Shown here piece after piece: positions 3,169 through 56,695 of a DNA stretch of 64,000 nt. The position numbers were made by a program, and so were the translations under genes. Location of the stretch: positions 80,988 through 144,987 of the forward strand of contig JAUSEX010000052.1 in NCBI GenBank assembly GCA_030649895.1, written 5' to 3'. This DNA is from Candidatus Omnitrophota bacterium. Lineage in GTDB: Bacteria; Omnitrophota; Gorgyraeia; Gorgyraeales; Gorgyraeaceae. Numbering within the stretch: position 1 is the first letter of the stretch; each line of letters begins with the position of its first letter. The notes below the pieces were generated by a model. That model saw only the letters and a program-made list of their open reading frames with translations, ran no database searches and was not told the origin of the DNA.

Positions 3169-3205
3169 GCGCGTCTTTATTTCAATAAAATTAACTGGAT
3201 GATTA

Positions 3206-4378: not shown

Positions 4379-4405
4379 AGATTTATATCATCCAAATATT
4401 CAACG

Positions 4406-5059
4406 CTAATTCAAAATCCTTGCAGGCACTCCAACTGCCGTAACGTCTTCCGGAATATCATCTTTTACAACTGCATTTGCTCCTATCTTTGACCTTTTTC
4501 CTATCCTAATGCCATTTATTATAACCGCGCCGGGACCTACAAACACCTGATCATCTATCGTTGAACTATCAGCTATATGCACTCCGCCGTTTAAAGTAAT
4601 GAAATCCCCTAATTGACAATGGTGCCCGATAGAAACAGCATAGTTGAAAAGATTAAAATTGCCTATTTTGGCATACGGCGCAACTATCGTATTCTGAGCA
4701 AAAATATTACCATGCCCAATAACAGCTTTTTTTGATATAATCGCTGATGGGTGAATAATATTAGGAAATTCTACATTAGCACAAAGTTGTATAGCTTTAA
4801 TTAATCCAGCCCTACCGATAGGGTTTATAAATGATATGACGTTTATCTCTTCTTTATGACTCATTAACCATTTTGGCGTATCTAGCACCTTATAACCAAA
4901 AAATTCCTCACCTTGTTTTCCTAAATCTGAATCGATAAAACCAAGAATTTTGTAACTCCTATTATCTGGCCTGTGTTCATATTGTGCATCTAAAATTTCC
5001 TCAATATTGACCACATATTTGCCTACTCCTAATATGATATATTTATCCATTCGAACCAT
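4406..5059 (-). CDS. NeuD/PglD-family sugar N-acyltransferase (left-handed beta-helix)
   Basis: N-terminal Rossmann-like region (ILGVGKY...GFIDSD) followed by hexapeptide repeats. Confidence 0.7.
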   Translation of the reverse strand: MVRMDKYIILGVGKYVVNIEEILDAQYEHRPDNRSYKILGFIDSDLGKQGEEFFGYKVLDTPKWLMSHKEEINVISFINPIGRAGLIKAIQLCANVEFPNIIHPSAIISKKAVIGHGNIFAQNTIVAPYAKIGNFNLFNYAVSIGHHCQLGDFITLNGGVHIADSSTIDDQVFVGPGAVIINGIRIGKRSKIGANAVVKDDIPEDVTAVGVPARILN

Positions 5060-5903
5060 ACCCTTCAGCAGGTGTTTTTAAACCCAGCAGTTCTCGCGCC
5101 TCAATAGGTTTCATGACAGGACGGCCCATGGTCTCTGCGATACTTATTAAACGTTTCAGCAAATCTCTGTTTGTCGCTAGCCTTGTTCTATTATTATCAA
5201 ACCAGATATTATCTTCCAAACCAATCCTAGCCCCACAGCCTATTACTGCAGCCAGCATGTTAATCATCTGTTGATTATCGCCGACAGCCCCCAGGCTGTA
5301 AATAGAGTCCTGCGGCAATTCATTAATCATAATACCTACGGATAAGATATTCGCCTGAGCGCATGCAATATTGCCAAAAATTAAATTGAAATAATAGGGC
5401 GATTTTAACAGTCCTTTTTTAATCAAATACTTGGCATAATTAATCATGCCAAGGTCAAATGCCTCCAGTTCAGGCCTAATACCTTTTTCTTTCATCTTTT
5501 CAGCTAGAGCAATTATCATACTTGGTTCATTTATGCTCGCCTGGTGGTTAAAATTCACTGAACTAAGCGTTAGACTTGCCAGGTCGGGTTTAGCCAAACC
5601 TTTGAGTTCTAAAACAGCAGACCGCTTTTCAAACTCGCTGTATGTCCTTCCGCTGCACGTCGCACAAATTATCGTTTCGGGACGCTCTTTTCTTATGCCT
5701 GTTATTATTTTCTCGTATATCTCCGGTTCCCATGTGGGGTCTCCGTCTTTATCGCGTCCGTGAATATGAACCATTGTTACGCCGAGCTCACAACAGCCTA
5801 AAACATCATCAATAATCTCCTCTGGGCTGATAGGCACTCTTTGAGTGTCTTTTTTTAACGGTATCATCCCTGTAGGGACAAGATTTACTATTAATTTCTT
5901 CAC
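5043..5903 (-). CDS. BKACE family enzyme (3-keto-5-aminohexanoate cleavage enzyme-like, DUF849)
   Basis: VNLVPTGM...K...PISPEEIIDDVLGCCELGVTMVHIHGRD matches the Kce signature region. Confidence 0.7.
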   Translation of the reverse strand: MKKLIVNLVPTGMIPLKKDTQRVPISPEEIIDDVLGCCELGVTMVHIHGRDKDGDPTWEPEIYEKIITGIRKERPETIICATCSGRTYSEFEKRSAVLELKGLAKPDLASLTLSSVNFNHQASINEPSMIIALAEKMKEKGIRPELEAFDLGMINYAKYLIKKGLLKSPYYFNLIFGNIACAQANILSVGIMINELPQDSIYSLGAVGDNQQMINMLAAVIGCGARIGLEDNIWFDNNRTRLATNRDLLKRLISIAETMGRPVMKPIEARELLGLKTPAEGYGSNG

Positions 5904-5922
5904 TTATACCTCCTCCCATCAA

Positions 5923-6201
5923 CTACCTTTTAACGCTTGAAAAGAAAGCATTGAGTTCATCTGCTAGCTGAACATCTCTACCTTTGGCGTTAAACGGAGC
6001 TAATAATTCATAAAAGGCCTTGTATGGAATAATTAATCCGGTAATATAATCTTTCTCTTTTAAAACCTTTACTCCTGGCAAGCCAGCTATCTTCTTAAAA
6101 AAAGAACCTATTTGTTTAACATCATTAAGCGTGGCCTCCGGCAGCCTCCATTCAAATTCAATCTCAAATTCATCCTTTCTATATGCGCATCTTTTAATCA
6201 T
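5923..6201 (-). CDS. Hypothetical 92-aa protein
   Basis: ORF in operon context with a 4-nt overlap to the downstream gene. No recognisable motif. Confidence 0.4.
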   Translation of the reverse strand: MIKRCAYRKDEFEIEFEWRLPEATLNDVKQIGSFFKKIAGLPGVKVLKEKDYITGLIIPYKAFYELLAPFNAKGRDVQLADELNAFFSSVKR

Positions 6202-7211
6202 TTTTGCGTCTCCTGCGAAATTATGTCATAAATACTTATTGATTGGTCAGGTAATACAAGTCCATGGCGACAAATTGAACAGCCTTTACAATCCATCCTT
6301 CTTCCGGACTTGTGCAGTTCGCGCAATTCGTTTAGTTTATCGCCATGCCATAATGCGCGCAGAGAAATGTCATTTACATTTCCCAGGGTTATATCTTCAG
6401 CGTCCCAGCCGGTGCAACACTGCACCCTGCCATTATGAGCTACCATCAAGCGTTCCCAGGGATACTGACAAACAAAACCAGGAACTGGCCTGCGATTATT
6501 CAAATCCATGTATTCGTTCATCACCACGAGGTCAGAAACCTTACTTAAACATTCATAATATCCTAAAGGATCCATAGAAACAGCCGGCCAAATAGAACAA
6601 ACGCGTATCTGCGGGTTAACTAACCCCAAACTGTCCCTTTTTTCCTTAAGATACTTGAGTTTATTAAGGCTTTCTTCAAATTTAGCGGGAAAGCGAATTC
6701 GATTATAAACTTCTCCCATGCCATCAAAAGAACAGCCTAAATAAGTCAGACCTTTTTCAATAAGAAAATCCGCCACTTCCTTTGTCACTAAGAACGTATT
6801 TGTCAGAAAAGAGACATTTGAAATCCTCTTGCATGCATATTCAACCATATCAAAAATCCTGGGATGAGTTAATGACTCGCCGCGCCAGCTAAGTCTCAGC
6901 GAATAGACTCCGTTTTCTTTGCATTCGTCAACTATTTTAGTGAAAACGTTCCAATTCATATCTCCCAGGTCTCTGAATTTTTTGCGAAAACACATTGGGC
7001 AGTTCATATTGCAATTGCTTGTAGTCTCTATGTCGACATGGAGCGGAAAATTAGATACAAAATAATTTTTAGAGTACTCATACCACTGCAAACGGTTAAT
7101 AAAGGTCTCCAAAAAATCGCCATGACTGCCATAGAACCTCCAAAAACGGCTTGGTGAGTCATAAACGCGCTGGTCTTTATTCGTATTCATGCTTATTCTC
7201 TCCTTCACCAT
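6198..7211 (-). CDS. Radical SAM protein with a SPASM/twitch-like C-terminal Cys cluster
   Basis: CNMNCPMC (CxxxCxxC). C-terminal CCTGW...CKGCSIC. Confidence 0.7.
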   Translation of the reverse strand: MVKERISMNTNKDQRVYDSPSRFWRFYGSHGDFLETFINRLQWYEYSKNYFVSNFPLHVDIETTSNCNMNCPMCFRKKFRDLGDMNWNVFTKIVDECKENGVYSLRLSWRGESLTHPRIFDMVEYACKRISNVSFLTNTFLVTKEVADFLIEKGLTYLGCSFDGMGEVYNRIRFPAKFEESLNKLKYLKEKRDSLGLVNPQIRVCSIWPAVSMDPLGYYECLSKVSDLVVMNEYMDLNNRRPVPGFVCQYPWERLMVAHNGRVQCCTGWDAEDITLGNVNDISLRALWHGDKLNELRELHKSGRRMDCKGCSICRHGLVLPDQSISIYDIISQETQK

Positions 7212-8261
7212 CTACTTGAAACAATCCCAGATAATCGGCTCTCCTTTTAAAATACGCCTTTGCGCCCTTATCCCATAAATATGCTGCAACAATCCAGGCT
7301 CTATTCCTCCTTCCGGCCTCAAAATGTCTACATTTTTTTCTGTAATCATTTCTCCTTCTTTGATATCTTTTACGGCATATATGGATTTTTTAAAAACCTG
7401 CCGTATCCCTTTCTCGGCATCTGTAACATCCTTATAAGGCAAACCCATCGCCTTTTCAGTCTCACGGATACCCTTAATTATCAATTCCATTTCATAAGGC
7501 ATCGTTGAAAAGAAATTATCAGGGCCAAGGGCTTCTCTTTTCAGTGTAAAATGTTTCTCTATAACACATGCCCCCATAGCAACAGCAGCAATAGGTATTG
7601 AAGTCGTCATCGTATGGTCGCTTAAACCAACAGGCACATCAAAAGTTTTCATTAATGTCTGCATCGTCCTTAAATTCATATCTTCAGGCCTTGCAGGATA
7701 TTGCGAAACGCAATGTAATAATATAGCATCGCTATTGCCTTCTTCTTTTATCGCCCTGATTGCGCTATCAATCTCTGAAAGATAGGACACCCCGGAAGAG
7801 ATTATCATTGGTTTTTTAAGCCGGGCTATATATTTTAAGAGAGGAATATTAGTCAAATCATCGGAACCAAGCTTATAGGCAGGAGGTCTGGCAATCTTTT
7901 CCAACAGGTCTACATCTTTAAAATGGCTCGGGGTAGAAAAAGCGGTTATATCTTTTTTCGCAGCATATAAAAATAACTCTTTTTGAAAATCCTCGGTCTG
8001 TTTCTCCTCGCTTTCCATAAATTCCTTATATTGGTCTATCATCCCTCTGCCATCTTTCAAATGCGTTCCTCTAATCACAGTTGTTTTGGCATGGAATGTT
8101 TGAAATTTAACGCAATCTGCTCCGATAGCCGCTGCTGAATCAACCAACCTTTTTGCACCATTTATATCATCAAAGTTCACGCCTGCTTCCAAAATAATAT
8201 AACAGGGACAATCCTTGCCTATTCTTCTTTTATTAATGACAATGGTTCCTCTCATAGACAC
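7212..8261 (-). CDS. NeuB-family nonulosonic acid synthase (N-acetylneuraminate / legionaminate / pseudaminate synthase-like)
   Basis: CYIILEAGVNFDDINGAKRLVDSAAAIGADCVKFQTF. C-terminal SAF-like region. Confidence 0.85.
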   Translation of the reverse strand: MSMRGTIVINKRRIGKDCPCYIILEAGVNFDDINGAKRLVDSAAAIGADCVKFQTFHAKTTVIRGTHLKDGRGMIDQYKEFMESEEKQTEDFQKELFLYAAKKDITAFSTPSHFKDVDLLEKIARPPAYKLGSDDLTNIPLLKYIARLKKPMIISSGVSYLSEIDSAIRAIKEEGNSDAILLHCVSQYPARPEDMNLRTMQTLMKTFDVPVGLSDHTMTTSIPIAAVAMGACVIEKHFTLKREALGPDNFFSTMPYEMELIIKGIRETEKAMGLPYKDVTDAEKGIRQVFKKSIYAVKDIKEGEMITEKNVDILRPEGGIEPGLLQHIYGIRAQRRILKGEPIIWDCFK

Positions 8262-9013
8262 CTCTTCCTTTTAAGAAATCTGGCCAGCTTTTTATTGCCA
8301 TAAATAATATTATCAGCGTCATGATAATATTCCAAAATAATATAATTGGCGCTGGATTTTTTCAAAACAAAATCTAATAATTTATACTCTTTTTCATCAG
8401 GCAGCTCATGGGAATCTTTGCCTAAAAAAGAGCGCGATAAATGGATTTCAATAACCTTTGATAAAGGCATCCTTTCTAAATAATCATGGATATCGATAGA
8501 CAAATTGCTGCAGGTAGCTTCAACATGCCCTATATCCAGTGTTAAATATACATTAAACTCTTTTACAAATGCATCTACAAACTCTGGAACGCATACAATT
8601 TCATAGGCGCCGGAAAGATGATAATCAAGATTTTCTACAGATATAATGCCCTTAAAATATTTTCGTATATTATTAATCTTTTTATCTGCGATTTTCAGAA
8701 TTTGTCCTTCCGTCAAAATATGGCTTTTGGCGACATATCCATTGTGAAAACAACCAACCTTGCGACAAGATGGCCCTAAATCAAATGACAACAGGCCTGC
8801 ACGAGATTGTATCTTTTTTAAAAATCTACAGTTATTAATTAATGCGTCGAATTCGTCGTTAATAAAGCCATTTGCATGAAATAAAACATCCTTTCCCTCA
8901 AAATCCTTATCCAGGTCTTTCTCTTTTCGGACAGACACAGCTCCTGCAATCGGAAGTAAATCGATTTTTACCTGTTCAAAATATTGCGATATAGGCAATC
9001 CTATTTTCATCAT
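8252..9013 (-). CDS. Hypothetical 253-aa protein; possibly a xylose-isomerase-like / DUF692-like TIM barrel
   Basis: Weak motif resemblance only (VENLDYH, LDIGHVE, EIHLS, HELPDEKEY). Confidence 0.3.
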   Translation of the reverse strand: MMKIGLPISQYFEQVKIDLLPIAGAVSVRKEKDLDKDFEGKDVLFHANGFINDEFDALINNCRFLKKIQSRAGLLSFDLGPSCRKVGCFHNGYVAKSHILTEGQILKIADKKINNIRKYFKGIISVENLDYHLSGAYEIVCVPEFVDAFVKEFNVYLTLDIGHVEATCSNLSIDIHDYLERMPLSKVIEIHLSRSFLGKDSHELPDEKEYKLLDFVLKKSSANYIILEYYHDADNIIYGNKKLARFLKRKRCL

Positions 9014-10539
9014 CTATAGTTTTTAACTACATCTTCGGATATCTTACGCAAATACTTTCGTTTATTTTCTAAACCAAGCTCTTTGTATACTGCATCCAGG
9101 ACAATATAGGAATAGATGCGGCTTGGAACATGCTTTATCCCATACTTTTGTTTAAATCTTTTTTCATAAACAGGGTAATTTTCATAAATATTTTTTCCAA
9201 GTTTAAAAAGACTGGCGTTAGAAGGCCATATATAATCAGATTTTTTAATAGATATGCTATTACTAATGGAGTATTCTTTTGTAATCCGTTTCAGAGAATC
9301 ATCATAATAAAATTCACTACCTGGTATATCCATAACTAATAAGGTGGTGCTTATCTCTACATTCTTCAGCATCTGCTTCACGCATAAATCAGCTGTCTCA
9401 ATTAAATCTTCCTTTGAGATACAAGGAGGCAACAGAATAATATAAATCAGAGGGGTAATCCCTGCCTCTATAGTTACATCAATAGACCGAATTATTTGCT
9501 GCCGCGTAACCCCCTTTTTTAGATAAGCCAAGACTCTATTGGAAAATGATTCTACGCCATACATAATCATTCGGAATCCCGCTTTTTTCATTAAGCCAAG
9601 TATCTCTTTTTTGGGTCCGGAAAAATCATCTGGCCTGCCCTGGCAAATAAAACTCAGGTCCTTTTCCAGCCTGCCTTTTTCCTTTAGAGCTATTATTCTT
9701 AAACACAGTTCCTCAAAGCATTTAAAATCCAAAAAAAGATTATCGTCGTCAAAAATAATAGTTTCAACTTCGCTCCATGTATCAGTAATATTAAGAATGA
9801 AATGAATAATATCTTCCACAGGTAATATATAGAAATGCCCTTGCCCCCTGAATTTGCCGCTATAAGAATAAGAAATAAAATTGGTTGATGAGCAAAATTT
9901 ACAACGAAGAGGACAGAAATTGGAAAACAGAACCCTGATAGCTCTGATTTCTGTCAGGTCAGGATCATTATACAAGGATGCATTATGTCTCCAATATCGA
10001 TTATACGGGACATCAACAACACCATATGCTTCGTAAATTTCCTTAAAATCGCGTAATGTTAGTTGTTTTCCGTATCCGCTAAAAAATATCTTGTCTTTGT
10101 CTCTCCAGTATATCGACCTAATGCTGCTGAATTCCCTTTTGCCTTCAACAATCGCTTCTAAAATTTTCAACAGGGTCTTTTCTCCTTCGCCTAAAACAAT
10201 TATATCGAAGAGGGCATATTCAAAGGACTTTTTCCCGAGAAACGACACCTCTGGTCCCCCTGCAATAAAAATTGCATCAGGAAACCTCAATTTAAAATAA
10301 TTAAATAGCAGCAGATCGTTTTCTAGGGTTAAATGCAATAAACTAAAACCTATCACATCATACATTTCTTTTATCTCTTTATAATTATCAATATTAGGGT
10401 CTAAAATATCGATACGGATCCGCTTTAGTTTCTTTTCAATATAAAACTTCATCCTGTATAATCCAAAAGAAGGAGCCAGAAACGAATCCCCTGAATTGTC
10501 CCGGCCTTTAAAAGGCCCTATCAATAAAACCCTTAACAT
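9010..10539 (-). CDS. B12-binding-domain radical SAM protein (class B)
   Basis: N-terminal Rossmann-like B12-binding region. CPLRCKFCSS (CxxxCxxC). Confidence 0.75.
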   Translation of the reverse strand: MLRVLLIGPFKGRDNSGDSFLAPSFGLYRMKFYIEKKLKRIRIDILDPNIDNYKEIKEMYDVIGFSLLHLTLENDLLLFNYFKLRFPDAIFIAGGPEVSFLGKKSFEYALFDIIVLGEGEKTLLKILEAIVEGKREFSSIRSIYWRDKDKIFFSGYGKQLTLRDFKEIYEAYGVVDVPYNRYWRHNASLYNDPDLTEIRAIRVLFSNFCPLRCKFCSSTNFISYSYSGKFRGQGHFYILPVEDIIHFILNITDTWSEVETIIFDDDNLFLDFKCFEELCLRIIALKEKGRLEKDLSFICQGRPDDFSGPKKEILGLMKKAGFRMIMYGVESFSNRVLAYLKKGVTRQQIIRSIDVTIEAGITPLIYIILLPPCISKEDLIETADLCVKQMLKNVEISTTLLVMDIPGSEFYYDDSLKRITKEYSISNSISIKKSDYIWPSNASLFKLGKNIYENYPVYEKRFKQKYGIKHVPSRIYSYIVLDAVYKELGLENKRKYLRKISEDVVKNYR

Positions 10540-10555
10540 ATTTTATCCTGCAAGG

Positions 10556-11272
10556 TTAAAGAAATACCTTTTTCATTAGCGGCACATCAATTCCATTGAT
10601 AATAGAAAAACTCTTATCGCCATAATTAAATAAAAGGTCTATTATTGACATGCAAGGCACAAATGGTTCATAAAGCTGTTTGTAAACTGGGTGATAAAAC
10701 TCCTGATAAGTTATTTTAATTCCTGCTTCTTCAAAATTTTCTAGATTCAAATAATCTTTCCCGGAAACTCCCGAGATATACGTTTCTGCTTTTAATTCCT
10801 TGCATATATTCAATATCAAATCACCTTTATGACCACTAGCTTCGAGAGAAGAGGAGAATACAAACCCTGTTTTTATATTTAAGGCTTGCATCAAATATCT
10901 AATAAACTCCAGGTTCATGTCCAAAAGAAAATTAAAATCTTTCAGATAAATCTCCTGCAAGCTATCAAAATAATGATTAAAATATTTAGCCTTAGAATAG
11001 GCGGTAGATATACTTTTAATATTCCTTTTTTTCCACCTAGGGTCATCCCTGGAAATCTTAACATCTTTAATCAGCGAACTATTCCTCGGTTCTTTGACTA
11101 CCGGAACAGAGACATACTGCGTTCCTGAGCATGTCCTTATCCGATTTCTATTTTGAAAATATCTTCTCCTGTATTGAACATCATCTAAAATCACATAAAC
11201 ATCTGCTATTGCTATTTTATGAAAGAATCCCAGCCACGGCAAATGCTCTGGCTGATGAATGGTTATCTTCAT
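10556..11272 (-). CDS. WbqC-like family protein
   Basis: MKITIHQPEHLPWLGFFHKI, the characteristic WbqC N-terminus. Confidence 0.7.
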   Translation of the reverse strand: MKITIHQPEHLPWLGFFHKIAIADVYVILDDVQYRRRYFQNRNRIRTCSGTQYVSVPVVKEPRNSSLIKDVKISRDDPRWKKRNIKSISTAYSKAKYFNHYFDSLQEIYLKDFNFLLDMNLEFIRYLMQALNIKTGFVFSSSLEASGHKGDLILNICKELKAETYISGVSGKDYLNLENFEEAGIKITYQEFYHPVYKQLYEPFVPCMSIIDLLFNYGDKSFSIINGIDVPLMKKVFL

Positions 11273-11274
11273 GA

Positions 11275-11901
11275 TTATTCTTTATGCCGCGAACTTTCTA
11301 ACAATATCTTTTCTGCTGCCCAAAAATCAAACTCATCATCTATCTCTACGTTTTCCTGACGGCTAATTATTTTCCTGCCAAGCTTTTTGCCATATTGATC
11401 GCCTTGCTTAATAAGGCTTGCCTTAATTACATACACATTTCCATCGTCATAAAAAAATCCGTTAATATCCTGCCTTCTTAACTGGTTTTTTCCGTATTCA
11501 ATGTATTTACACATAAAACCTGTGGCAAGAGAATCGTAATTATTATCCTTAAATTCTTTTATACATTCATCTACAAGCCCTTCGTTTCTTATGGGGGAGG
11601 TGGCTTGAAGAAGAACTACTATATCGCAAGGAATTTGTTTTATCACATGCTGAAGAACGCTCAAGGTGCTGGCTTCATCACTTGCCAGTTCAGGCGGACG
11701 ATAAAGAGCTTCTGTGTCATAACCCTTTGCAACCTTTGCTATACCCTTGTCTTCAGTAGAGATGATATATCTATCTAGCATGGTTGCCTTCTTCGCTGAT
11801 TCTATAGTCCACGCGATTAAAGGCCTGCCAGCAATCAATTTGATGTTCTTTTTAGGTATTCCTTTACTTCCACCCCGCGCCGGGGTAATACCAAGTATCA
11901 T
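11275..11901 (-). CDS. Acylneuraminate cytidylyltransferase family (CMP-nonulosonic acid synthetase)
   Basis: ILGITPARGGSKGIPKKNIKLIAGRPLIAW. Confidence 0.85.
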   Translation of the reverse strand: MILGITPARGGSKGIPKKNIKLIAGRPLIAWTIESAKKATMLDRYIISTEDKGIAKVAKGYDTEALYRPPELASDEASTLSVLQHVIKQIPCDIVVLLQATSPIRNEGLVDECIKEFKDNNYDSLATGFMCKYIEYGKNQLRRQDINGFFYDDGNVYVIKASLIKQGDQYGKKLGRKIISRQENVEIDDEFDFWAAEKILLESSRHKE

Positions 11902-11922
11902 CTTATCCCCATTTCTGTCCTT

Positions 11923-13934: not shown

Positions 13935-13937
13935 AGG

Positions 13938-16398: not shown

Positions 16399-16450
16399 AT
16401 TTTTTCCTTCGTTTTTAATGCGTTTACAACGTTTAAAATCTTCTAAACAA

Positions 16451-16479
16451 TAATAACACCATACAACTATTCATGTCAA
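16451..16479 (-). promoter_or_regulatory. Candidate sigma70-type promoter for the regulator gene and downstream operon
   Basis: Minus strand reads TTGACA (16474-16479), then 17 nt, then TTATTA (16451-16456). AAGGA RBS before the ATG at 16398. Confidence 0.4.
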
Positions 16480-16601
16480 CAAAATAACTATTTAATTAAC
16501 TCTTAAACGGCGCGCGCTAAAGTGCGGATTTTTATGATTTTCTGTTAAAAATTAAGCTGTAGGGAAAATTTCTGGGAAAGAATTTTTTAATACCACATTG
16601 C

Positions 16602-19835: not shown

Positions 19836-19836
19836 C

Positions 19837-22391: not shown

Positions 22392-22407
22392 ATTTCAGAA
22401 AATCCTG

Positions 22408-24258: not shown

Positions 24259-24288
24259 TGATTTTAAATCAAGGTAGGCTACACGCCT

Positions 24289-26990: not shown

Positions 26991-26993
26991 TGT

Positions 26994-28509: not shown

Positions 28510-28516
28510 ATCCCTA

Positions 28517-29515
28517 TTAAATAAATACTTCTTTTAACAGTTTCTTTATCTCTTTTACGGTCATAAAACTACCACTATGCTGCGATTTGTATATTTTCGG
28601 CATACGGCTGCCTTTGGCTTTTTTATTGCATTCAAAAGACGGCAGTATAAACATATCCTTTGTTTCGCACGCAATCCCAGCTTCGTCCTCATTCATTAAT
28701 TCTTCATACATCTTCTCTCCGCTCCTCCTACCTATGAATTTCATTTTAATCTCTTCCGGCGCATAACCGCAAGACAGAGCCATCTCTTCAATCATCGCCT
28801 TTGCTAAATCTTTTATGCGCAAAACCGGCATTTTAAGTATGAATATCTCTCCTCCCTCGGACATCTGCGCGGCCTTAAGGACAAGCTCTGTAGCCTTGTC
28901 GATACTCATGATAAACCTTGTCATGCCGTTGTCCGTAATCGTGACAGGCCCGCCCTTTTTTATCTGTTCCATGAATATAGGTAAGACAGAGCCCTGTGAA
29001 TTCAACACATTACCGAACCTCACGCATGAAAAAGTAGTGTCTCTTTTGCCTTTATATAAATTAGCGGAGACTGTTAGTCTCTCGGCGAGGAGTTTAGACG
29101 CGCCCAGGACATTTATGGGGTTAACCGCCTTATCTGTGCTTATGGTCACGAACTTTTTAACCTCTTCCTCAAGCGCGGCTTCTATCAAATTCTTTGTCCC
29201 CAAGACATTCGTCTGCACGGCCTCGAATGGATTAGACTCGCAGAGAGGCACATGTTTCAGCGCGGCTGCATGGAATATTATATCAACATCTTCTACTGCC
29301 CTTACCAATCTCCCTTTATCTTTTATATCACCTACTAAAAATCTTGTCTTTTTCCCATGTAACGCCTGCTCTAAATTAAACAGCCCTGTTTCATTTGTAT
29401 CCAAAATCCTCACTGTCCTGGGGTTGAACTCCAGGAGCTTCCTGACCAGGGCACTGCCTATGGAACCTGCCCCGCCTGTTACAAGTATTGTTTTCCCTTC
29501 ATATAAATTTTTCAT
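28517..29515 (-). CDS. UDP-sugar 4,6-dehydratase, short CapD/PseB/FlaA1 type (Polysacc_synt_2)
   Basis: KTILVTGGAGSIGSALVRKLL, 332 aa. Confidence 0.7.
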   Translation of the reverse strand: MKNLYEGKTILVTGGAGSIGSALVRKLLEFNPRTVRILDTNETGLFNLEQALHGKKTRFLVGDIKDKGRLVRAVEDVDIIFHAAALKHVPLCESNPFEAVQTNVLGTKNLIEAALEEEVKKFVTISTDKAVNPINVLGASKLLAERLTVSANLYKGKRDTTFSCVRFGNVLNSQGSVLPIFMEQIKKGGPVTITDNGMTRFIMSIDKATELVLKAAQMSEGGEIFILKMPVLRIKDLAKAMIEEMALSCGYAPEEIKMKFIGRRSGEKMYEELMNEDEAGIACETKDMFILPSFECNKKAKGSRMPKIYKSQHSGSFMTVKEIKKLLKEVFI

Positions 29516-30468
29516 GACATGACTCCTTTTATTTTAATAAGGTCATTTACGTCTAATCTGGGTAAGGTAAGTGGCCTATCCGAGGTTAAATCCGCAATCC
29601 GCGGTTCTGTAGTAAGGCCTGCGACGCAACCTTTATCTTTAATAATCTTCAGCAAAAAATCATTATAACTGCCATAGGGATAACACATTACCCATTCTTT
29701 AATATCGCATCCGATTATATCATGCAAAAAACTCAAAGATAGCGCTATTTCTGTTTTCTGCTTATATTCATCCATTTCATTAAGCCAAGAATGTCCAAAA
29801 CCATGGCTTCCAATATACATTCCATTCCTTTTCATACATTTAAGCTGGTCTACATTAAGATATAATTCATTGCAGAAACTTTTCTCATTTTTTGTAACAT
29901 ATTTATTAAAAAGCCTGCCCGTAATTTCATTCCTTAAATCTTCCGGTAATTCCTTTTGTAATATTCTTTTTATAAATACCACTTCTTTTGTGTCAAAGCG
30001 ATCTTTAACCGCTAATTTCCTAAAATAATAACGATTACATTCCAGAGAATACTTTTGCTTATATTCATCTAATAATGAAAATATCTCTTCTACTAATTTT
30101 TGTTTATCATTAATAGACGCTAGTATAAAATGTATTTTATTAACATCTAAAACCTGACTGTGGGTAACAGCCTTTACCGGAGGAAAAAAACTTCCACTGA
30201 CCCCTGATTCCTTCAGCAAAGGAAAGACGTTTATAAAATGATCCGCGTAACCATCGTCGAAAGTGAGTAAAGCCGCACGCTTAGGAAGGCTATCCCCGTA
30301 CTTTAGGGAATATATCAGCTCTTCCATTGAGATGATATTACAGCATCTTATTAAATATTTTAATTGCTTTCTGAAATGAAGCAGAGACAGTCCTTTAATC
30401 TCAGGAAAACGAGAATTTTTAAATTCTCTGACGTAGTGATACATTATTATTGAAACTTTATTTTTCAT
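29512..30468 (-). CDS. Polysaccharide deacetylase (CE4 / NodB homology)
   Basis: LTFDDGYADH. Confidence 0.75.
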   Translation of the reverse strand: MKNKVSIIMYHYVREFKNSRFPEIKGLSLLHFRKQLKYLIRCCNIISMEELIYSLKYGDSLPKRAALLTFDDGYADHFINVFPLLKESGVSGSFFPPVKAVTHSQVLDVNKIHFILASINDKQKLVEEIFSLLDEYKQKYSLECNRYYFRKLAVKDRFDTKEVVFIKRILQKELPEDLRNEITGRLFNKYVTKNEKSFCNELYLNVDQLKCMKRNGMYIGSHGFGHSWLNEMDEYKQKTEIALSLSFLHDIIGCDIKEWVMCYPYGSYNDFLLKIIKDKGCVAGLTTEPRIADLTSDRPLTLPRLDVNDLIKIKGVMS

Positions 30469-31595
30469 TGCGCGCTTTTTCTTTCTGATATCTGATCAAT
30501 ATTGTTTAATCTATCTCTGTCTGAATCAGTCCTGGTAAAAAATATCTGTTTTTCTGTCAGTCTTGAAATTTCATTTTTATATTTCTTGCTAAACAAGCCT
30601 ATATATTCATTATTTAAGCGATTTTCTACCGGACACGTGACAAATGGCAATAAACCGGCATCTTCATTACGAAGAAAAGAAAAACCATGTTTTTCTAATA
30701 CATCCCCGTAAGCTGAACCAAAAGAAGAAAAATCAATATAGATATGCCCAGAGCCTTTGGCGCGTAGCACCACTTCACATAATACCTCCGGCATATAATC
30801 TTTTATGCCTAATAAATCTATTATACGCGTAATGTAAAAGTCGGTGGAATGCAAGCGTTCTACCCTGATTATCGCATAAGATAATATTTTATTAGCCAAA
30901 ACATAAGCTATGCAATGATATTTAATATACGGGTTATCAAAAAATCGCCATTTCAAAAAATTAATATCACGTTGTGTAACTGCCGCCGCAGGATACTCGC
31001 AGTTCAGATAAAAATTATCTATGTTTTCTCTGCTTATTTCAGTTACATTAACATTACCATCTGAAAACTCAAAATTTACGGGCTTAAATAGACTTCTCGC
31101 TTTAACAAAATCCTGCCCTATTATTTTTACAATATCAAAAGTTTTTTCGTTTAAATTTAATGCATACCGGTTAAATCGTTTATTCTCAAATGTATTGAAT
31201 CCTAACTCTCTATAAAACGAAGCGGTCTTTGAAGTAAAACCGATAACTCCAAATACATCGTGCCTGTTTATCATATTATTCACAAACGTGCTATTTATAC
31301 CGCGACCTCTCCATTCCGGAAGAGTATACGCATTAACGCCCCAGGCAAATGATACAGGAGTATTATTTAATATAAGCGCATATCTCAATTCTCCATAATG
31401 CGCTACTATTTCGTTTTCTTTATCCACTGCAATTAGAGAGGTTATAAAAGACTTTTTTTCAAATTGCGAAAAACCGAAGTACCACTTTAAAAATATGGAA
31501 TCCTGGAAAATAGTCTTAGACCCGTACGCTTTAATAAAAAATTTTGCCAGGTTATTTAAGTCTTCTTCGTTAAAAGAGCGTATTGTATATTTCAT
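30465..31595 (-). CDS. GNAT-like (possibly FemAB-like) acyltransferase, 376 aa
   Basis: N-terminal IRSFNEEDLNNLAKFF GNAT-like start. Confidence 0.45.
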   Translation of the reverse strand: MKYTIRSFNEEDLNNLAKFFIKAYGSKTIFQDSIFLKWYFGFSQFEKKSFITSLIAVDKENEIVAHYGELRYALILNNTPVSFAWGVNAYTLPEWRGRGINSTFVNNMINRHDVFGVIGFTSKTASFYRELGFNTFENKRFNRYALNLNEKTFDIVKIIGQDFVKARSLFKPVNFEFSDGNVNVTEISRENIDNFYLNCEYPAAAVTQRDINFLKWRFFDNPYIKYHCIAYVLANKILSYAIIRVERLHSTDFYITRIIDLLGIKDYMPEVLCEVVLRAKGSGHIYIDFSSFGSAYGDVLEKHGFSFLRNEDAGLLPFVTCPVENRLNNEYIGLFSKKYKNEISRLTEKQIFFTRTDSDRDRLNNIDQISERKSAQ

Positions 31596-31767
31596 ACAGT
31601 TTGTTTTTCAACCAGGATATAATTTGAAGATATTTAAAATCTCTCTTAATGATAATTTTTGCGTTAGAATCAACTATCTTATCTTAAGCCATATTTTAGC
31701 ATGGCTTGTTTTACGGGTTATTATCTCTAACGCTTTGAAAAATATTTGCAATTTTTATCTTGACCTA

Positions 31768-32895
31768 TTACCGCAACACTTTTTTAATTTCTTTTACCAT
31801 ATAATCCATCTCTTCACTTTTTAACATCGGATACATAGGTAATGTGATAACCTCTTTTGAAACCTTCTCTGTAACGGGCAATCTGCATTTATATTTAAGT
31901 TTATTTTTGTAAAAATAAGACAAATGAGCTGGCTGAAAATATACCTTGGTCATAATACCTTTTGAAGCAAGATGTTGCATCAGTTTGTTTCTATATTTCT
32001 TATTAACTTTTATAGTATATAATTGATATACGTGAAAATATTCATCCGGCGGGTTTGGAGTCATTATCCGGCCTGTTTCCTGAGACAAACTGGTGTTTAA
32101 ATATTCTGAATTTTTTCTTCTCATTTCAATAATATTTTCCACTTTCTCCAGCTGCGAAATTCCTAAAGCCGCTATAACACTCGGCATTCTAAAATTATAC
32201 CCAAGGCTGACATAATCAAGAGGTTTCATAGTCGTAAAATAATCTTCTGTTTCCAACCTGCCATGAGACCTTATCAGTTTGAGCTTTTCACAAATCTGTC
32301 TGGAATTTGTTACTATTGCTCCACCTTCACCTGTCGCAATGATTTTATTCTGGCAAAAGCTAATCATCGCAGAATCTCCAAAGGTCCCAACTTTTTTGCC
32401 TTTTATATTCGCTCCAAAAGATTCCGCAGCGTCTTCTATAAGAATAAGATTATGTTCCTGCGCGATCTTTTTCAACTCCCTTATCCTGCAGGGGCAGCCG
32501 CCATAATGGATGGGGATTATCGCTTTTGTCTTGCGGGTAATTTTCTTCTTAACGTCTTCCGGATCCAATCCAAAGGTTTCTTCTTCTATATCAGCAAAAA
32601 CAGGTTTTGCGCCTACAAATAAAACAGCATTGGCTGTTGAAATAAAAGTAAACGACGGGACAATAACCTCATCCCCTTTTCCTATTCCGTAAGCCAGAAG
32701 AAGCGCATGCATAGCTGAAGTCCCAGAATTAAAAACTATACAATACTTAACGCCGATATAGCCGGAGATTTTATTCTCAAATTCCTTTATACTGAGTCCT
32801 TCTGCCCACTGCATGCCAGACTTAACAACTTTATTAACAGCCCTTACATCTTCATCATCCCAATAAATCTTAAACATTGGTATTTTCCAATTCAT
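31768..32895 (-). CDS. DegT-family sugar aminotransferase (PseC/LegC/PglE-like)
   Basis: DEVIVPSFTFISTANAV...NKIIATGEGGAIVT. Confidence 0.85.
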   Translation of the reverse strand: MNWKIPMFKIYWDDEDVRAVNKVVKSGMQWAEGLSIKEFENKISGYIGVKYCIVFNSGTSAMHALLLAYGIGKGDEVIVPSFTFISTANAVLFVGAKPVFADIEEETFGLDPEDVKKKITRKTKAIIPIHYGGCPCRIRELKKIAQEHNLILIEDAAESFGANIKGKKVGTFGDSAMISFCQNKIIATGEGGAIVTNSRQICEKLKLIRSHGRLETEDYFTTMKPLDYVSLGYNFRMPSVIAALGISQLEKVENIIEMRRKNSEYLNTSLSQETGRIMTPNPPDEYFHVYQLYTIKVNKKYRNKLMQHLASKGIMTKVYFQPAHLSYFYKNKLKYKCRLPVTEKVSKEVITLPMYPMLKSEEMDYMVKEIKKVLR

Positions 32896-33308
32896 AATTT
32901 CTTATCCTTGTTTGTTAATTTTCTTATTACTTTTATAGGAACTCCGTATGCCAGAGAATTAGGAGGGATATCCCTGTTAACAAAGCTGAAAGCCCCTATA
33001 ATTGAATTTTCCCCTATTGTTACTCCTGGCATCACAACGCTATGGGTGCCTATCTTGGAGTTCCTTTTTATTAAAATTTTACCCTTTTTATTATCAATAG
33101 TGGAAACAGTGTATAAAGAACAATGTGAGCCCACCTGAACATTGTCTTGCAATTCAACTTTGTGCTTTGCATTGATATAAGTAAATGCGCCTACATCAAC
33201 ATGTTTTCCTATTTTTAACTTCTCGTGATGCTGGCATTTCCAATGCCATTTTGTCATGCCATTTTTATCAAATCTTGGAGGTTTCCAATTTTCAAATCTG
33301 TTTTTCAT
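32892..33308 (-). CDS. Hexapeptide-repeat acetyltransferase (left-handed beta-helix)
   Basis: GTHSVVMPGVTIGENSIIGAFSFV. Confidence 0.75.
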   Translation of the reverse strand: MKNRFENWKPPRFDKNGMTKWHWKCQHHEKLKIGKHVDVGAFTYINAKHKVELQDNVQVGSHCSLYTVSTIDNKKGKILIKRNSKIGTHSVVMPGVTIGENSIIGAFSFVNRDIPPNSLAYGVPIKVIRKLTNKDKKL

Positions 33309-33310
33309 AT

Positions 33311-34453
33311 TTAATAAGTTATCCTTTTCTGTAATAATTCGTTATTGATTTTTATCCTGCGAAGTTCTTTTACAATCCGGCTGCTTACTTTTCCGTCTCC
33401 ATATGGATTTCCGCATTTTTTCACTTTCTTCTTAAACGCGGCATTATGGATAGCTTTCTTTATCGCTTTTTTTATTTTTTCTCTATCATAGCTGACATCT
33501 ATGACATTTTCTGCCCTTTCCCTACCGTCTTGCCTTGTTCCGATATTTACAACCGGCAAATGAAAAGAAGAAGCTTCGATAATCCCGGAACTGGAATTGC
33601 CCACAAGAACACCAGTTGCTCTCATTAAACTAAGATATTCCCTTCGGATTATACTCTTATATATATGGATAAACGGATATTTTCTGTATTTTTTAATAAC
33701 CTTTATCATCCCTCTTCCACCACTATCTGCATTTGGATAAATAACAATTGCTTGATATCCAAGTTCTCTTATCGCTTCCATGGTTTCCAACATATGCCTT
33801 AACGATTGTTTATTATCAATTGATACCGGATGCTGGATTACCATTAAAAAAGGGTTAGTTGTATCCAAATTATATTTTTTTGCTATACGTTTGGGAGGAA
33901 TGAGCTTCTCGCGCAAAATACTTTCTAACCCCGGAGCGCCTACTACATGAACTCTCCATGGGTCTTCACCCATTTCTATTATTCTTTTGGCGGATTTTCT
34001 TGTAGCCGCAAAGTGGACATGAGAAAGTTTGGTTATTGCATGGCGGGTAATTTCATCAACCGTAGAGGTAACATCTCCGCCATGTATATGAACAACAGGA
34101 ATCATCGAATATGCGCCTACTATAGCGCCGGCTAACATCTCAGCCCTGTCTCCAAGCACTAACACAATATCCGGCTTAACCAATTTGATCTTTTCTGTAA
34201 ATTTTAGAATAAACCCGCCAATAAAACTTGCCATTGACTCTCTGTTGTCATCTTTATATACAGCCTTAACAGCATGAATCTTAAATTTATCTTTTTTAAT
34301 CTCATCTATGGTATTCCCAAATTCAGACATTAGATGCATACCTGTAACAACTATTTCTATTTTTAATCCAAGGCGTCTCTTGATAGAAATAAGCGTCTCT
34401 CTCATTAAACCGTAATCCGCCCTTGTTCCTGAAATATACAAAATTTTTCTCAT
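33311..34453 (-). CDS. NeuC/LegG-type UDP-N-acetylhexosamine 2-epimerase (hydrolysing)
   Basis: ILYISGTRADYGLMRETL. Confidence 0.8.
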   Translation of the reverse strand: MRKILYISGTRADYGLMRETLISIKRRLGLKIEIVVTGMHLMSEFGNTIDEIKKDKFKIHAVKAVYKDDNRESMASFIGGFILKFTEKIKLVKPDIVLVLGDRAEMLAGAIVGAYSMIPVVHIHGGDVTSTVDEITRHAITKLSHVHFAATRKSAKRIIEMGEDPWRVHVVGAPGLESILREKLIPPKRIAKKYNLDTTNPFLMVIQHPVSIDNKQSLRHMLETMEAIRELGYQAIVIYPNADSGGRGMIKVIKKYRKYPFIHIYKSIIRREYLSLMRATGVLVGNSSSGIIEASSFHLPVVNIGTRQDGRERAENVIDVSYDREKIKKAIKKAIHNAAFKKKVKKCGNPYGDGKVSSRIVKELRRIKINNELLQKRITY

Positions 34454-35508
34454 GCCAAATCCTTGAAATTAATCAAACTGTCTTTAGCGATATTCACCCT
34501 AGCTCTTTTTCCTATAACCTGATTCATCAATGCCGGCGGAATACCTGTGCCGGGCCTTTTTATATCAATCATCTCCCTTGTCAAGACAGCGCCCTTGGGC
34601 ATATAAACACTTGAAACTACGCTTTTTCTTACTACTTTTTTTATCATGTCCTCGCTCTTTGCCGGCCTCTTTATCCCATCCCCCATGGACATTCCCACAT
34701 CCCTAATAGCCTTTACCATTTCTCTAAATTCTTCCGGCTCCAAGGATGCCTTATGGTCAGGCCCGGACATGCTTTTATCAAGCGTAAAATGTTTCTCTAT
34801 TACGCTTGCGCCTAAAGCTACGGCCACTATCGAAGCGATAATACCTGTGGTATGGTCGGAAAACCCTACGGGCAATTTAAAAAAGCGTTTCATGGTCTGT
34901 ATCGTCCTTAAATTAACATCCTTTATGGACGCGGGATAATTTGTAACGCATTGAAGCAGGGTTATATCCTTAACGCCTTCTTTTCTGATTACTCCCAATG
35001 CCGCCTTTATTTCCTTTAGATCAGACATCCCAGTAGACAAGATAACAGGCTTTCCTTTCCTAGCTATATGTTTAAGCAAAGGTATATTTGTTATTTCTCC
35101 GGACGGTATTTTAAAAATCCTGATACCTATTTTATCCAGCGCATCCGCGCTTTCTTTATCAAAAGGTGACGATAAAAAAATGATATTTTTCTTTTTTGCA
35201 TAGCCTGCTATCTTTTTAAACTCGCCGGCGGTAAGTTCTAGTTTCTTTAGCATCTCCAATTGCGTTTCATCTCTATCTGTAACGTTTTTCTGATATTCAG
35301 CTTTCGGAGCGCATACGGAAACAAGCGACTCAGCCTTAAAAGTTTGAAACTTAACCGCGTCAGCGCCCGCCTGGCTTGCCGCATCTATCAATCTCTTAGC
35401 TATTTTAATAGAGCCATTATGATTTACGCCTGCCTCGGCTATAATAAACACTTTATCTGTTACCGTCCTTTTATTTCCTCTTTTTAAAAACATGGTTTTA
35501 CGCCCCAT
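34450..35508 (-). CDS. NeuB-family nonulosonic acid synthase (second copy)
   Basis: VFIIAEAGVNHNGSIKIAKRLIDAASQAGADAVKFQTF. Confidence 0.85.
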   Translation of the reverse strand: MGRKTMFLKRGNKRTVTDKVFIIAEAGVNHNGSIKIAKRLIDAASQAGADAVKFQTFKAESLVSVCAPKAEYQKNVTDRDETQLEMLKKLELTAGEFKKIAGYAKKKNIIFLSSPFDKESADALDKIGIRIFKIPSGEITNIPLLKHIARKGKPVILSTGMSDLKEIKAALGVIRKEGVKDITLLQCVTNYPASIKDVNLRTIQTMKRFFKLPVGFSDHTTGIIASIVAVALGASVIEKHFTLDKSMSGPDHKASLEPEEFREMVKAIRDVGMSMGDGIKRPAKSEDMIKKVVRKSVVSSVYMPKGAVLTREMIDIKRPGTGIPPALMNQVIGKRARVNIAKDSLINFKDLA

Positions 35509-55680: not shown

Positions 55681-55686
55681 TTGATT

Positions 55687-56685: not shown

Positions 56686-56695
56686 AAATACCTTG

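Follow-up and report, generated by a model that had tools for sequence, protein, structure and literature searches.

Within the 64,000-nucleotide stretch of Candidatus Omnitrophota DNA analysed here (contig JAUSEX010000052.1; the window, with positions counted from its first letter) lie two sets of genes for the synthesis of nonulosonic acids, each with its own NeuB-family synthase and its own CMP-nonulosonate-synthetase-type cytidylyltransferase. One of them, module B (25659-35508), resembles the known legionaminic acid pathway. The other, module A (1378-16398), is built around a divergent synthase, NeuB1, that is accompanied by radical S-adenosylmethionine (SAM) enzymes, B12-binding ones among them, and by a DUF692/MNIO-like protein, in a cassette of genes that recurs in other phyla. 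We consider it probable that the modules are separate branches, furnishing two different CMP-nonulosonates for one exported surface polysaccharide. We also advance, tentatively, the proposal that the cassette makes a nonulosonic or higher ulosonic acid of a new kind by a route not recognised before, with groups installed by radical-SAM and B12 enzymes and with an MNIO-type enzyme working on a carbohydrate. The gene content, the family memberships, the conservation and linkage of the cassette and a sequence signature of NeuB1 are observations, and it is with these that the argument begins.

Nonulosonic acids cap bacterial surfaces and govern their charge and their recognition by phages and the immune system; what is known of their biosynthesis follows three textbook routes, to neuraminic (Neu), legionaminic (Leg) and pseudaminic (Pse) acids. 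A nonulosonate locus with a pair of synthases and a pair of CMP-synthetases has precedents in Leptospira interrogans and Campylobacter. In the Leptospira nonulosonic acid (NulO) locus the synthases and the CMP-NulO synthetases are each multiple and there are several aminotransferases, an arrangement that has been read as making several nonulosonates (PMC3438082); the flagellar glycosylation island of C. jejuni is likewise multi-synthase. The synthases of these two systems each fall into a recognised Neu, Leg or Pse lineage, whereas the second synthase of the window, NeuB1, belongs to a separate clade and sits among radical-SAM and DUF692/MNIO-like genes, without a dehydratase or hydrolase of its own. 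The genes of module A, in their order of transcription, are:

15850-16398, minus strand: MarR-type helix-turn-helix (HTH) regulator at the head of the module (Pfam MarR_2, 7e-8)
14879-15853, minus strand: DegT324, a short DegT-family aminotransferase of 324 amino acids (Pfam DegT, 1.8e-60, profile positions 4-247 of 360)
13938-14918, minus strand: GalE-like extended SDR, probable start ATG at 14879 (Pfam Epimerase, 3.6e-56)
13266-13934, minus strand: PIG-L/LmbE-family de-N-acetylase (Pfam PIG-L, 3e-20)
11923-13278, minus strand: B12-binding radical-SAM protein (b) (Pfam Radical_SAM and B12-binding; 73% identical and syntenic in L012, a related locus introduced below)
11275-11901, minus strand: CMP1, CMP-nonulosonate-synthetase-type cytidylyltransferase (CTP_transf_3, 1.8e-24)
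10556-11272, minus strand: WbqC-family protein (Pfam WbqC PF08889, 9e-74, 248 bits against a cut-off of 21.3)
9010-10539, minus strand: B12-binding radical-SAM protein (a) (Pfam Radical_SAM and B12-binding)
8252-9013, minus strand: DUF692/MNIO-like TIM-barrel putative metalloprotein (Pfam MbnB_TglH_ChrH PF05114, 45.2 bits against a cut-off of 25)
7212-8261, minus strand: NeuB1 (Pfam NeuB PF03102, 7e-76, 255 bits, and SAF)
6198-7211, minus strand: radical-SAM/SPASM protein (Pfam Radical_SAM and SPASM; 87% identical in L012)
5923-6201, minus strand: conserved open reading frame (ORF) of 92 amino acids (no Pfam match; 59% identical in L012)
5043-5903, minus strand: BKACE, beta-keto acid cleavage enzyme (Pfam BKACE, 1.6e-76; 85% identical and syntenic in L012)
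4406-5059, minus strand: NeuD/PglD-type left-handed beta-helix N-acyltransferase (TIGR03570, 158 bits, cut-off 160.8)
3206-4378, minus strand: SAM-dependent methyltransferase of 390 amino acids (Methyltransf_11, 3e-11; 68% identical and syntenic in L012)
1378-3168, minus strand: LIC12162-family transferase (TIGR04331, 394.6 bits against a cut-off of 225)

A preliminary description of this DNA had bounded module A at 4406-11901, well inside its real extent, and had passed over several of its members: the radical-SAM genes at 6198-7211, 9010-10539 and 11923-13278 (as well as one in module B, at 25659-26990), the DUF692/MNIO-like gene and the genes of the WbqC-family protein and BKACE. The genes that it did name are all intact minus-strand ORFs lying where it had placed them, with E-values far beyond chance, and its inventory of two NeuB-family synthases (41% identical to one another), two CMP-NulO-type cytidylyltransferases (31% identical), one NeuC-type epimerase, one PseB/CapD-type dehydratase, two DegT aminotransferases and PIG-L and CE4 deacetylases is borne out.

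NeuB1, like NeuB2 of module B, matches the solved NeuB, PseI and SpsE structures. It misses the cut-offs of both named synthase models, scoring 305 bits with the N-acetylneuraminate/legionaminate synthase model TIGR03569 (cut-off 399.65) and 295.6 bits with the PseI model TIGR03586 (cut-off 340.25). In a homologue search its orthologues form a clade of ~40 proteins at 51-79% identity, and generic NeuB proteins follow at no more than 48%. (The window protein is identical to MDO8603566.1, and the adjoining DUF692 protein to MDO8603567.1, from a Ca. Omnitrophota metagenome-assembled genome (MAG); the public gene model of NeuB1 begins two residues later.) Aligned to Neisseria meningitidis NeuB (NmNeuB), NeuB1 keeps E25, K52, Q54, K130, S133, H216, E235, H237, D248 and R315; the positions aligned to NmNeuB E25, K53, Q55, K129, H215, E234, H236, D247 and R314 are invariant in NeuB1, NeuB2 and 41 sequences of the clade. 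In the NmNeuB structure these positions serve as metal ligands and in phosphoenolpyruvate (PEP) and sugar binding and catalysis. What sets the clade apart is an eight-position signature, F/Y-D-D-V-N-F-F-L, where the bulk of relatives have H-G-E-M-H-K/R-A-K and NeuB2 has HGEMHKAK; three of the eight positions come directly after the conserved GPD motif, and F/Y30, D134, D135, N249, F250 and F251 are among the signature residues. We infer from this signature that the sugar pocket of NeuB1 is probably remodelled and more hydrophobic and, in consequence, that NeuB1 may take a different aldose substrate.

A KDO-8-P- or DAHP-synthase identity for one of the synthases, or its being a pseudogene, was what the preliminary description had named as fatal to its proposal. 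Neither applies: both NeuB proteins are intact, with NeuB and SAF domains and with the catalytic positions kept, and NeuB1 has orthologues at 51-79% identity. It is likewise exceedingly improbable that the second pair of synthase and cytidylyltransferase is a duplicate in decay or without a function of its own. Nothing specific speaks for this beyond the scores of NeuB1, CMP1 and CMP2, which lie under equivalog cut-offs, and it has to contend with intact ORFs, with residues at catalytic positions that are invariant across 41 orthologues, and with the distribution of orthologues, together with conserved neighbours, over at least four phyla. Moreover, judged by their 41% and 31% identity, NeuB1 and NeuB2, like CMP1 and CMP2, are ancient paralogues and not recent duplicates.

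The company that NeuB1 keeps was followed in 12 independent loci, taken from the contigs of NeuB1-clade members and from genome and metagenome scans with the MNIO-like protein (the metagenome scan added only three), with genes mapped by tblastn. The cassette recurs in Omnitrophota, Oligoflexia, Dehalococcoidales and Elusimicrobia. The order DegT324-SDR-PIG-L-CMP1-WbqC-B12-radical-SAM-MNIO-like-radical-SAM/SPASM-NeuB1 is collinear in the Omnitrophota-type loci L003, L005, L007 and L015/16, and L009 (an Oligoflexia MAG) and L010 (a MAG from Dehalococcoidales) have the same genes in shuffled order. In 12 of 12 loci the MNIO-like, radical-SAM/SPASM and NeuB1 genes occur together, a trio kept even on contigs of 2.5-5 kb, one from Elusimicrobia (L008) and one from a metagenome (L017). 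The linkage holds in both directions: all six loci fetched by NeuB1 have the MNIO-like gene, and six of the seven fetched by the MNIO-like gene have NeuB1. The exception, L011 (Thermodesulfobacteriota MAG JBFMAW010000007.1, 10001-16811), has an MNIO-like gene (32% identity) with no NeuB1 in view; there, the MNIO-like gene stands next to four radical-SAM/SPASM paralogues in tandem and a cytidylyltransferase that resembles CMP1 (49% identity). Orthologues of B12-radical-SAM protein (a), at 33-69% identity, adjoin the MNIO-like gene in L001, L003, L005, L007, L014 and L015. Most cassette loci have the WbqC-family gene, a member of a large family; the cassette has a LIC12162-family transferase beside it in the window and in L001, L003, L009, L012, L013 and L014.

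The closest relative of module A, L012, shares the tail of the window module (the radical-SAM/SPASM, small ORF, BKACE, acyltransferase, methyltransferase and LIC12162 genes) at 57-87% identity, and its NeuB1 falls within the same range. Its MNIO-like gene (9213-10001) is only 39% identical to that of the window and is preceded by a second SDR in place of the B12-radical-SAM gene. This disparity, together with the lack of CMP1 in L012, indicates that cassettes are mosaic and that two cassette subtypes have recombined. Other loci have local peculiarities. The HTH gene is found in the same position in L013 (Logan ERR14369873, 15897-21044), where the cassette has a different second module at its side, made up of two GFO/IDH/MocA oxidoreductases, a NeuB with a cytidylyltransferase, a formyltransferase and a TIM-barrel protein of the AP_endonuc_2 family, with FkbH-like, MaoC and CE4 genes upstream; these suggest decorations of the N-formyl or N-glyceroyl type. 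In L014 (Logan SRR22387824, 14430-16992) the LIC12162 transferase is followed by a HisF-like protein, a HisH-like protein (glutamine amidotransferase) and a 396-amino-acid protein, a trio that resembles the N-acetyl-sugar amidotransferase systems making acetamidino sugars. Remnants of a DegT N-terminus lie just after NeuB1 in L003 (11044-11569) and L005 (11041-11211); an intact 362-amino-acid DegT occupies that position in L007 and L015/16, and the window has none.

The MNIO-like protein is a constant of the cassette. Its AlphaFold2 (AF2) model (pLDDT 92) finds its best folds by Foldseek in TglH, the DUF692 protein 3BWW and MbnB (TM ~0.68), and the keto-sugar epimerases YcjR and D-allulose 3-epimerase match almost as well. 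E127, D160, H191, D200, H202 and E228 align with TglH; the D-x-x-N motif reads D-I-G-H, and the N-terminal ligands lie outside the alignment. Its subfamily has few members: among 1.84 billion, 57 cluster representatives match at E<1e-30 and 422 at E<1e-10. At 51 bits against 400, the protein stays far short of every NCBIfam MNIO equivalog. The MNIOs characterised so far all have peptide substrates (PMC13056109, PMC11002830). The window protein is like MbnB, TglH, ChrH and ApyH in its PF05114 match and its fold, with the six residues just named in alignment with TglH, and differs from them in being strictly linked to a sugar synthase, with no peptide or partner gene. An MNIO-like enzyme with this linkage is outside the family's known scope.

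Another explanation is that the product of module A is not a nonulosonate at all. It might be (a) an ulosonic acid of 8, 10 or more carbons, formed from PEP and a non-hexose aldehyde (supplied, say, as a heptose by the GmhA/HldE-like genes nearby, or generated by the radical-SAM/SPASM enzyme), or (b) a ribosomal peptide matured by the MNIO-like, radical-SAM/SPASM and B12-radical-SAM proteins and afterwards glycosylated. Taken together, we regard these alternatives as quite improbable. The combination of MNIO, radical-SAM/SPASM and B12-radical-SAM enzymes is indeed the classic set for peptides made by the ribosome and modified after translation (RiPPs), and the known MNIO substrates are peptides. 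However, no partner protein or precursor-peptide gene flanks the MNIO-like gene in the window or in the 12 related loci; the gene overlaps or abuts its neighbours; and the small ORFs of L003 and L005 are the DegT remnants already referred to. The RiPP assignment was rejected on these grounds. In favour of a larger or smaller ulosonic acid are the misses of NeuB1 at both equivalog cut-offs and its different sugar pocket, a heptose-type module at 44030-49492 of the window, and the detection in Magnetospirillum of CMP-linked ulosonic acids with C10 backbones whose genes are unknown (10.64898/2026.04.20.719630). On the other side, in other loci the NeuB1 cassette is not accompanied by the heptose-type genes, every conserved neighbour of NeuB1 comes from a sugar-tailoring family, and CMP1 resembles CMP-Neu5Ac synthetases: these are its nearest solved relatives, at 3.5e-22 to 1.5e-20 against 2e-6 for KdsB (CMP1 being the only one of the two cytidylyltransferases compared). 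CMP1 and CMP2 both pass the Pfam gathering score; with the PseF model TIGR03584 (cut-off 205.7) CMP1 reaches 111.8 bits and CMP2 126.7.

Among the remaining proteins of module A, DegT324 keeps the pyridoxal phosphate lysine; of solved structures, PglE and KdnA, the Kdo8N transaminase, come closest to it, and it matches 2-deoxy-scyllo-inosose aminotransferases at 2e-25. The SDR has the YxxxK motif, and where RmlB-type 4,6-dehydratases carry an Asp/Glu pair it reads GSTTWVYS (SSSSAVYG in the L009 orthologue), without that pair. On this motif it is ruled out as a 4,6-dehydratase for module A and looks like an epimerase or oxidoreductase. No NeuC-, LegG- or PseG-type or Epimerase_2 gene was found in 1378-16398. 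With NeuB1 failing the NeuB and PseI cut-offs, an SDR lacking the dehydratase acid/base pair and no NeuC/PseG-type hydrolase, the preliminary description of module A as a parallel Leg/Pse/Neu module with extras is not supported. The metal motifs of the PIG-L protein, HMDDE and DHR, are conserved in orthologues. The WbqC-family protein (AF2 model pLDDT 93) has no significant fold match in the PDB, and a literature search on WbqC returned nothing functional. The 92-amino-acid ORF overlaps the stop codon of the radical-SAM/SPASM gene upstream by 4 nt (translational coupling), and no acyl carrier protein-like serine motif or other recognisable feature is found in it. BKACE scores 217 bits, under cut-off, with the NCBIfam Kce model; it may supply an unusual acyl-CoA for N-acylation. 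The NeuD-type ORF overlaps the BKACE gene and is conserved in L012. The LIC12162-family protein is a candidate glycosyltransferase for the module A sugar.

Module B comprises the following genes, again in order of transcription, with a possible transferase further downstream:

34450-35508, minus strand: NeuB2, canonical NeuB/LegI-type synthase (Pfam NeuB, 3.5e-101, 338 bits, and SAF)
33311-34453, minus strand: NeuC/LegG-type hydrolysing UDP-sugar 2-epimerase (TIGR03568, 434.4 bits against a cut-off of 235.9)
32892-33308, minus strand: hexapeptide (left-handed beta-helix) N-acetyltransferase of 138 amino acids (Pfam Hexapep, 1.2e-14)
31768-32895, minus strand: full-length DegT aminotransferase, PseC/LegC-like (Pfam DegT, 7e-116)
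30465-31595, minus strand: 376-amino-acid protein with a weak N-terminal GNAT domain (Pfam Acetyltransf_9, 4.5e-5)
29512-30468, minus strand: CE4 polysaccharide-deacetylase-family protein (Pfam Polysacc_deac_1, 2e-17)
28517-29515, minus strand: PseB/CapD-type UDP-GlcNAc 4,6-dehydratase (Polysacc_synt_2, 8e-108)
27715-28509, minus strand: SAM-dependent methyltransferase of 264 amino acids (Pfam Methyltransf_11, 1e-17)
26994-27725, minus strand: CMP2 cytidylyltransferase (CTP_transf_3, 1.1e-23)
25659-26990, minus strand: B12-binding radical-SAM protein (c), directly downstream of CMP2 (Radical_SAM, 2.6e-25, and B12-binding, 2.2e-19)
22408-24258, minus strand: 616-amino-acid GT-B-like protein, possibly, on weak matches, the module B sugar transferase

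This is the full canonical complement for a 5,7-diamino-nonulosonate, as the preliminary description had it. NeuB2 and the NeuC-type protein pass their NCBIfam equivalog cut-offs, NeuB2 reaching 475.4 bits with TIGR03569 (cut-off 399.65) and failing the PseI model TIGR03586 (314.6 bits against 340.25). The presence of NeuC rather than PseG and the passing by NeuB2 of the NeuB/LegI model and not of the PseI model point to a product of legionaminic rather than pseudaminic type, which may be Leg itself, one of its epimers (4eLeg, 8eLeg) or a sugar of Neu type. The dehydratase reaches 315 bits with the PseB model (cut-off 407.75) and has its nearest solved structures in Pen/CapD (6BWC) and PseB (2GN4), with PglF a weaker match; with such relatives, the stereochemistry of its product (retaining or inverting) is not readable from sequence. 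The DegT aminotransferase scores 313.6 bits with the PseC model and 272.3 bits with the LegC model, both under the cut-offs. The hexapeptide protein matches the C-terminal half of the NeuD/PglD model and shares the left-handed beta-helix with the NeuD/PglD-type protein of module A, and so the three acyltransferase folds previously counted in this locus reduce to two. For the 376-amino-acid GNAT-like protein there is no NCBIfam match; B12-radical-SAM protein (c) matches HpnJ, ApyD, BchE and PhpK, all under cut-offs. The extra genes, for the CE4, GNAT-like, methyltransferase and B12-radical-SAM proteins, suggest N-acyl exchange and methylation. The weak C-terminal matches of the 616-amino-acid protein are to the BFO_1060-family glycosyltransferases (47.8 bits against 200), TIGR04396, Pfam Epimerase_2 and Capsule_synth; as a relative of LIC12162 or PFTS it was discarded, no similarity being found.

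Set beside the legionaminic pathways of C. jejuni (LegB/C/H/G/I/F) and Legionella pneumophila (the UDP route, with NeuC/NeuB/NeuA), module B has the same six activities, and its tailoring genes recall C. jejuni ptmG/ptmH and the deacetylase and formyltransferase of Kuenenia. It differs in a dehydratase and an aminotransferase that are nearer to PseB/Pen and PseC than to LegB/PglF (and are under all curated cut-offs), in an N-acetyltransferase that is a 138-amino-acid beta-helix without the N-domain of PglD, and in having a B12-radical-SAM gene beside the cytidylyltransferase gene. A literature search yielded no paper joining radical SAM with nonulosonic acids.

The NeuB1 cassette matches no described pathway and appears to be undescribed. 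The nearest analogy is with anaerobic aminoglycoside tailoring, in which BtrD is a PIG-L deacetylase, BtrN a radical-SAM dehydrogenase, BtrS and BtrR are DegT aminotransferases and GenK is a B12-radical-SAM methylase. These, with AprD4/AprD3, are the same enzyme families that are combined in module A. Fom1 and Fom3, for their part, act on a CMP-linked substrate. The analogy is one of chemical logic only: the scaffold here is the product of a NeuB and not an aminocyclitol or a phosphonate, and although the AprD4 model is among the B12-radical-SAM matches, no aminoglycoside-type match reaches a curated cut-off.

How the two branches might work can be set out as follows, with substrates, order of steps and products inferred. 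Branch B would start from UDP-GlcNAc and proceed by way of the PseB/CapD-type dehydratase, the DegT aminotransferase, the hexapeptide N-acetyltransferase and the NeuC-type enzyme to NeuB2 and CMP2; tailoring by the CE4 deacetylase, the GNAT-like protein, the methyltransferase and the B12-radical-SAM enzyme would come after. In branch A, NeuB1 would join PEP to an aldose other than that used by NeuB2, CMP1 would activate the product, and the LIC12162 transferase would install it. Tailoring would take place largely on the CMP-sugar: oxidation by the radical-SAM/SPASM enzyme or the SDR, then transamination by DegT324; de-N-acetylation by the PIG-L protein, then re-acylation or amidination by the WbqC or NeuD-type enzyme, with acyl-CoA from BKACE; and C-methylation by the B12-radical-SAM enzymes. 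The MNIO-like TIM barrel would serve as an oxidase or a keto-sugar epimerase.

Tailoring at the CMP stage is suggested by gene arrangement and by precedent. Each of the two cytidylyltransferase genes of the window has a B12-radical-SAM gene directly beside it, and in L005 a radical-SAM/SPASM gene adjoins a cytidylyltransferase gene. L009 (JADFZW010000035.1, 13988-15727, minus strand) encodes a 579-amino-acid CTP_transf_3::radical-SAM/SPASM fusion beside a separate 225-amino-acid cytidylyltransferase, a Rosetta-stone hint that ties radical-SAM chemistry to CMP-sugars. (A CE4 and GNAT pair also accompanies the cassette in L009.) The precedents are PtmG (Cj1324) of C. jejuni, which converts CMP-Leg5Ac7Ac to its 5-acetamidino form, CMP-Leg5Am7Ac (PMC3766260, PMC5378307), and the Leg-like cluster of Kuenenia, in which a deacetylase and a formyltransferase act on CMP-sugars, giving free-amine CMP-nonulosonates (10.64898/2026.04.20.719630).

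A number of observations weigh against separate branches, and are best brought together. The gravest concern the supply of substrate: branch A has no recognisable 4,6-dehydratase (the only candidate being the SDR, with its divergent motif) and no NDP-sugar hydrolase or 2-epimerase, so that the source of the free aldose for NeuB1 is the main gap in the model. In 6 of ~10 sizeable loci (the window, L001, L005, L007, L013 and L015) NeuB1 has another NeuB within 10-26 kb, which would fit a reliance on a partner pathway. The L012 cassette lacks CMP1. The radical-SAM/SPASM protein of the window is only 33-38% identical to its cassette orthologues (46-67% identical among themselves) and is a divergent, relocated relative, encoded on the other side of NeuB1. 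Failure to reach NCBIfam cut-offs is not peculiar to module A, for those of PseB, PseC and PseF are unreached by the module B enzymes too. Phylogeny, which the preliminary description had proposed as a check, gives a divided answer: neighbour-joining (NJ) trees with three solved references place the NeuB1 clade apart from NmNeuB, PseI and SpsE, but three intermediate sequences (P0042, P0053 and P0054) shift position, which keeps the bootstrap values for its exact monophyly in these simple trees low (6/30 and 11/40). (A paper on the phylogeny of NulO synthases does not mention the NeuB1 clade or Omnitrophota.) The membership of PtmG in the WbqC family is a presumption. And all functions rest on homology.

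Several of these points would be met if there were one scaffold, re-tailored. Module B would then make the sole six-carbon precursor or the sole CMP-nonulosonate, and the enzymes of module A would modify it, NeuB1 and CMP1 being only an alternative synthase and activator for a modified intermediate, such as a 2,4-diamino-2,4,6-trideoxy-hexose after N-acyl exchange. We judge this unlikely, though there is evidence for it: the lack in module A of a dehydratase-type SDR, an NDP-sugar hydrolase and a 2-epimerase; the proximity of a second NeuB in the six loci just named; the tailoring of PtmG and deacetylase type known on CMP-sugars; and L001, in which a five-gene core (WbqC, B12-radical-SAM, MNIO-like, radical-SAM/SPASM and NeuB1), without DegT324, SDR, PIG-L and CMP1 genes, stands beside a canonical set of PseB-like, DegT, PglD, NeuB and NeuC genes. 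Against it, L003, L009, L012 and L014 have no second NeuB or NeuC in the 7-10 kb of flank in view, most cassette loci have a cytidylyltransferase of their own, as well as their own LIC12162 transferase, and the strictly clade-specific pocket signature of NeuB1 is unexpected for a redundant synthase. Only the window and L001 show a NeuC homologue, so that the cassette is not bound to a canonical module. Each branch of the window, besides, has its own set, NeuB1, CMP1 and the LIC12162 transferase on the one hand and NeuB2, CMP2 and (weakly) the BFO_1060-like protein on the other. Between the two possibilities left standing by the preliminary description, two sugars or one that is re-tailored, the evidence favours two different nonulosonates.

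The wider locus is that of a surface polysaccharide (capsule), on the minus strand, filling nearly the whole window (~1378-57772, ~55 kb), with several glycosyltransferases and unusually many radical-SAM genes; GC content is 33-44% across the window and GC skew is negative throughout. Its export genes include:

35498-37267: ABC exporter
50427-53294: Wza-like export protein
54100-55704: Wzi export protein

The nonulosonate genes are packed tightly on one strand, with gaps of more than 100 nt only at 16398-16602 and 31595-31768. This packing agrees with their earlier description as one operon. On the other hand, the best sigma-70-like site in 15000-34900 (16479-16450, minus strand; TTGACA-18-TATTAT with a TG extension) falls in the 203-nt gap immediately upstream of the MarR gene that heads module A, and module A may on this account be its own transcription unit; this is only suggestive, promoter-like sites overall showing no enrichment over shuffled sequences. 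In the stretch separating the two modules, between glycosyltransferase genes and an RmlD-type reductase, is a gene for a 428-amino-acid flavin amine-oxidase/UDP-galactopyranose-mutase-like protein (17663-18949).

Beyond the exporter lies the third sugar module (44030-49492), apparently a branch for a heptose or a branched sugar. It encodes a split transketolase, a second radical-SAM/SPASM protein (45346-46413), an isomerase of SIS/GmhA-like type, an HldE-like kinase/nucleotidyltransferase and a member of the GSU2086 family (369.6 bits, cut-off 250). An IS110-family transposase (42677-43708) adjoins the split transketolase, whose C-terminal subunit ORF (44030-44584; 184 amino acids) reaches over only part of the pyrimidine-binding domain and is without the C-terminal domain, perhaps cut short by the IS110 insertion. 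At the upstream end of the window (55756-63979), a gene of GDP-mannose 4,6-dehydratase type (56798-57772) is joined by three further SDR epimerase/dehydratases, two genes of the UDP-glucose/GDP-mannose dehydrogenase family and one RmlA-type nucleotidyltransferase. These nucleotide-sugar genes make it likely that the polysaccharide holds several other modified sugars.

Mass-spectrometric surveys are revealing ulosonic acids that lie outside the Neu, Leg and Pse routes, with free amines, odd acyl groups and extended backbones. The locus offers a concrete, conserved set of genes for such chemistry: a synthase subfamily that bears a signature, radical-SAM and B12 genes beside cytidylyltransferases, an MNIO-like enzyme outside a peptide context, and a dedicated family of transferases, LIC12162. 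It is plausible that the cassette represents the type of source from which the C10 or unassignable CMP-ulosonic acids arise that mass spectrometry has detected in environmental bacteria. If the route proposed for the cassette is real, amino, deoxy or C-methyl groups would be added to a CMP-sugar or its precursor by oxygen-independent chemistry, and the DUF692/MNIO family would have its first non-peptide substrate. If, instead, the cassette only re-decorates legionaminic acid, it would still be a reusable tailoring module, and its signature would serve to recognise NeuB paralogues that equivalog models leave unnamed. The host belongs to an uncultured phylum, Omnitrophota, which suggests that anaerobes may have their own toolkit for making sialic-acid-like sugars.

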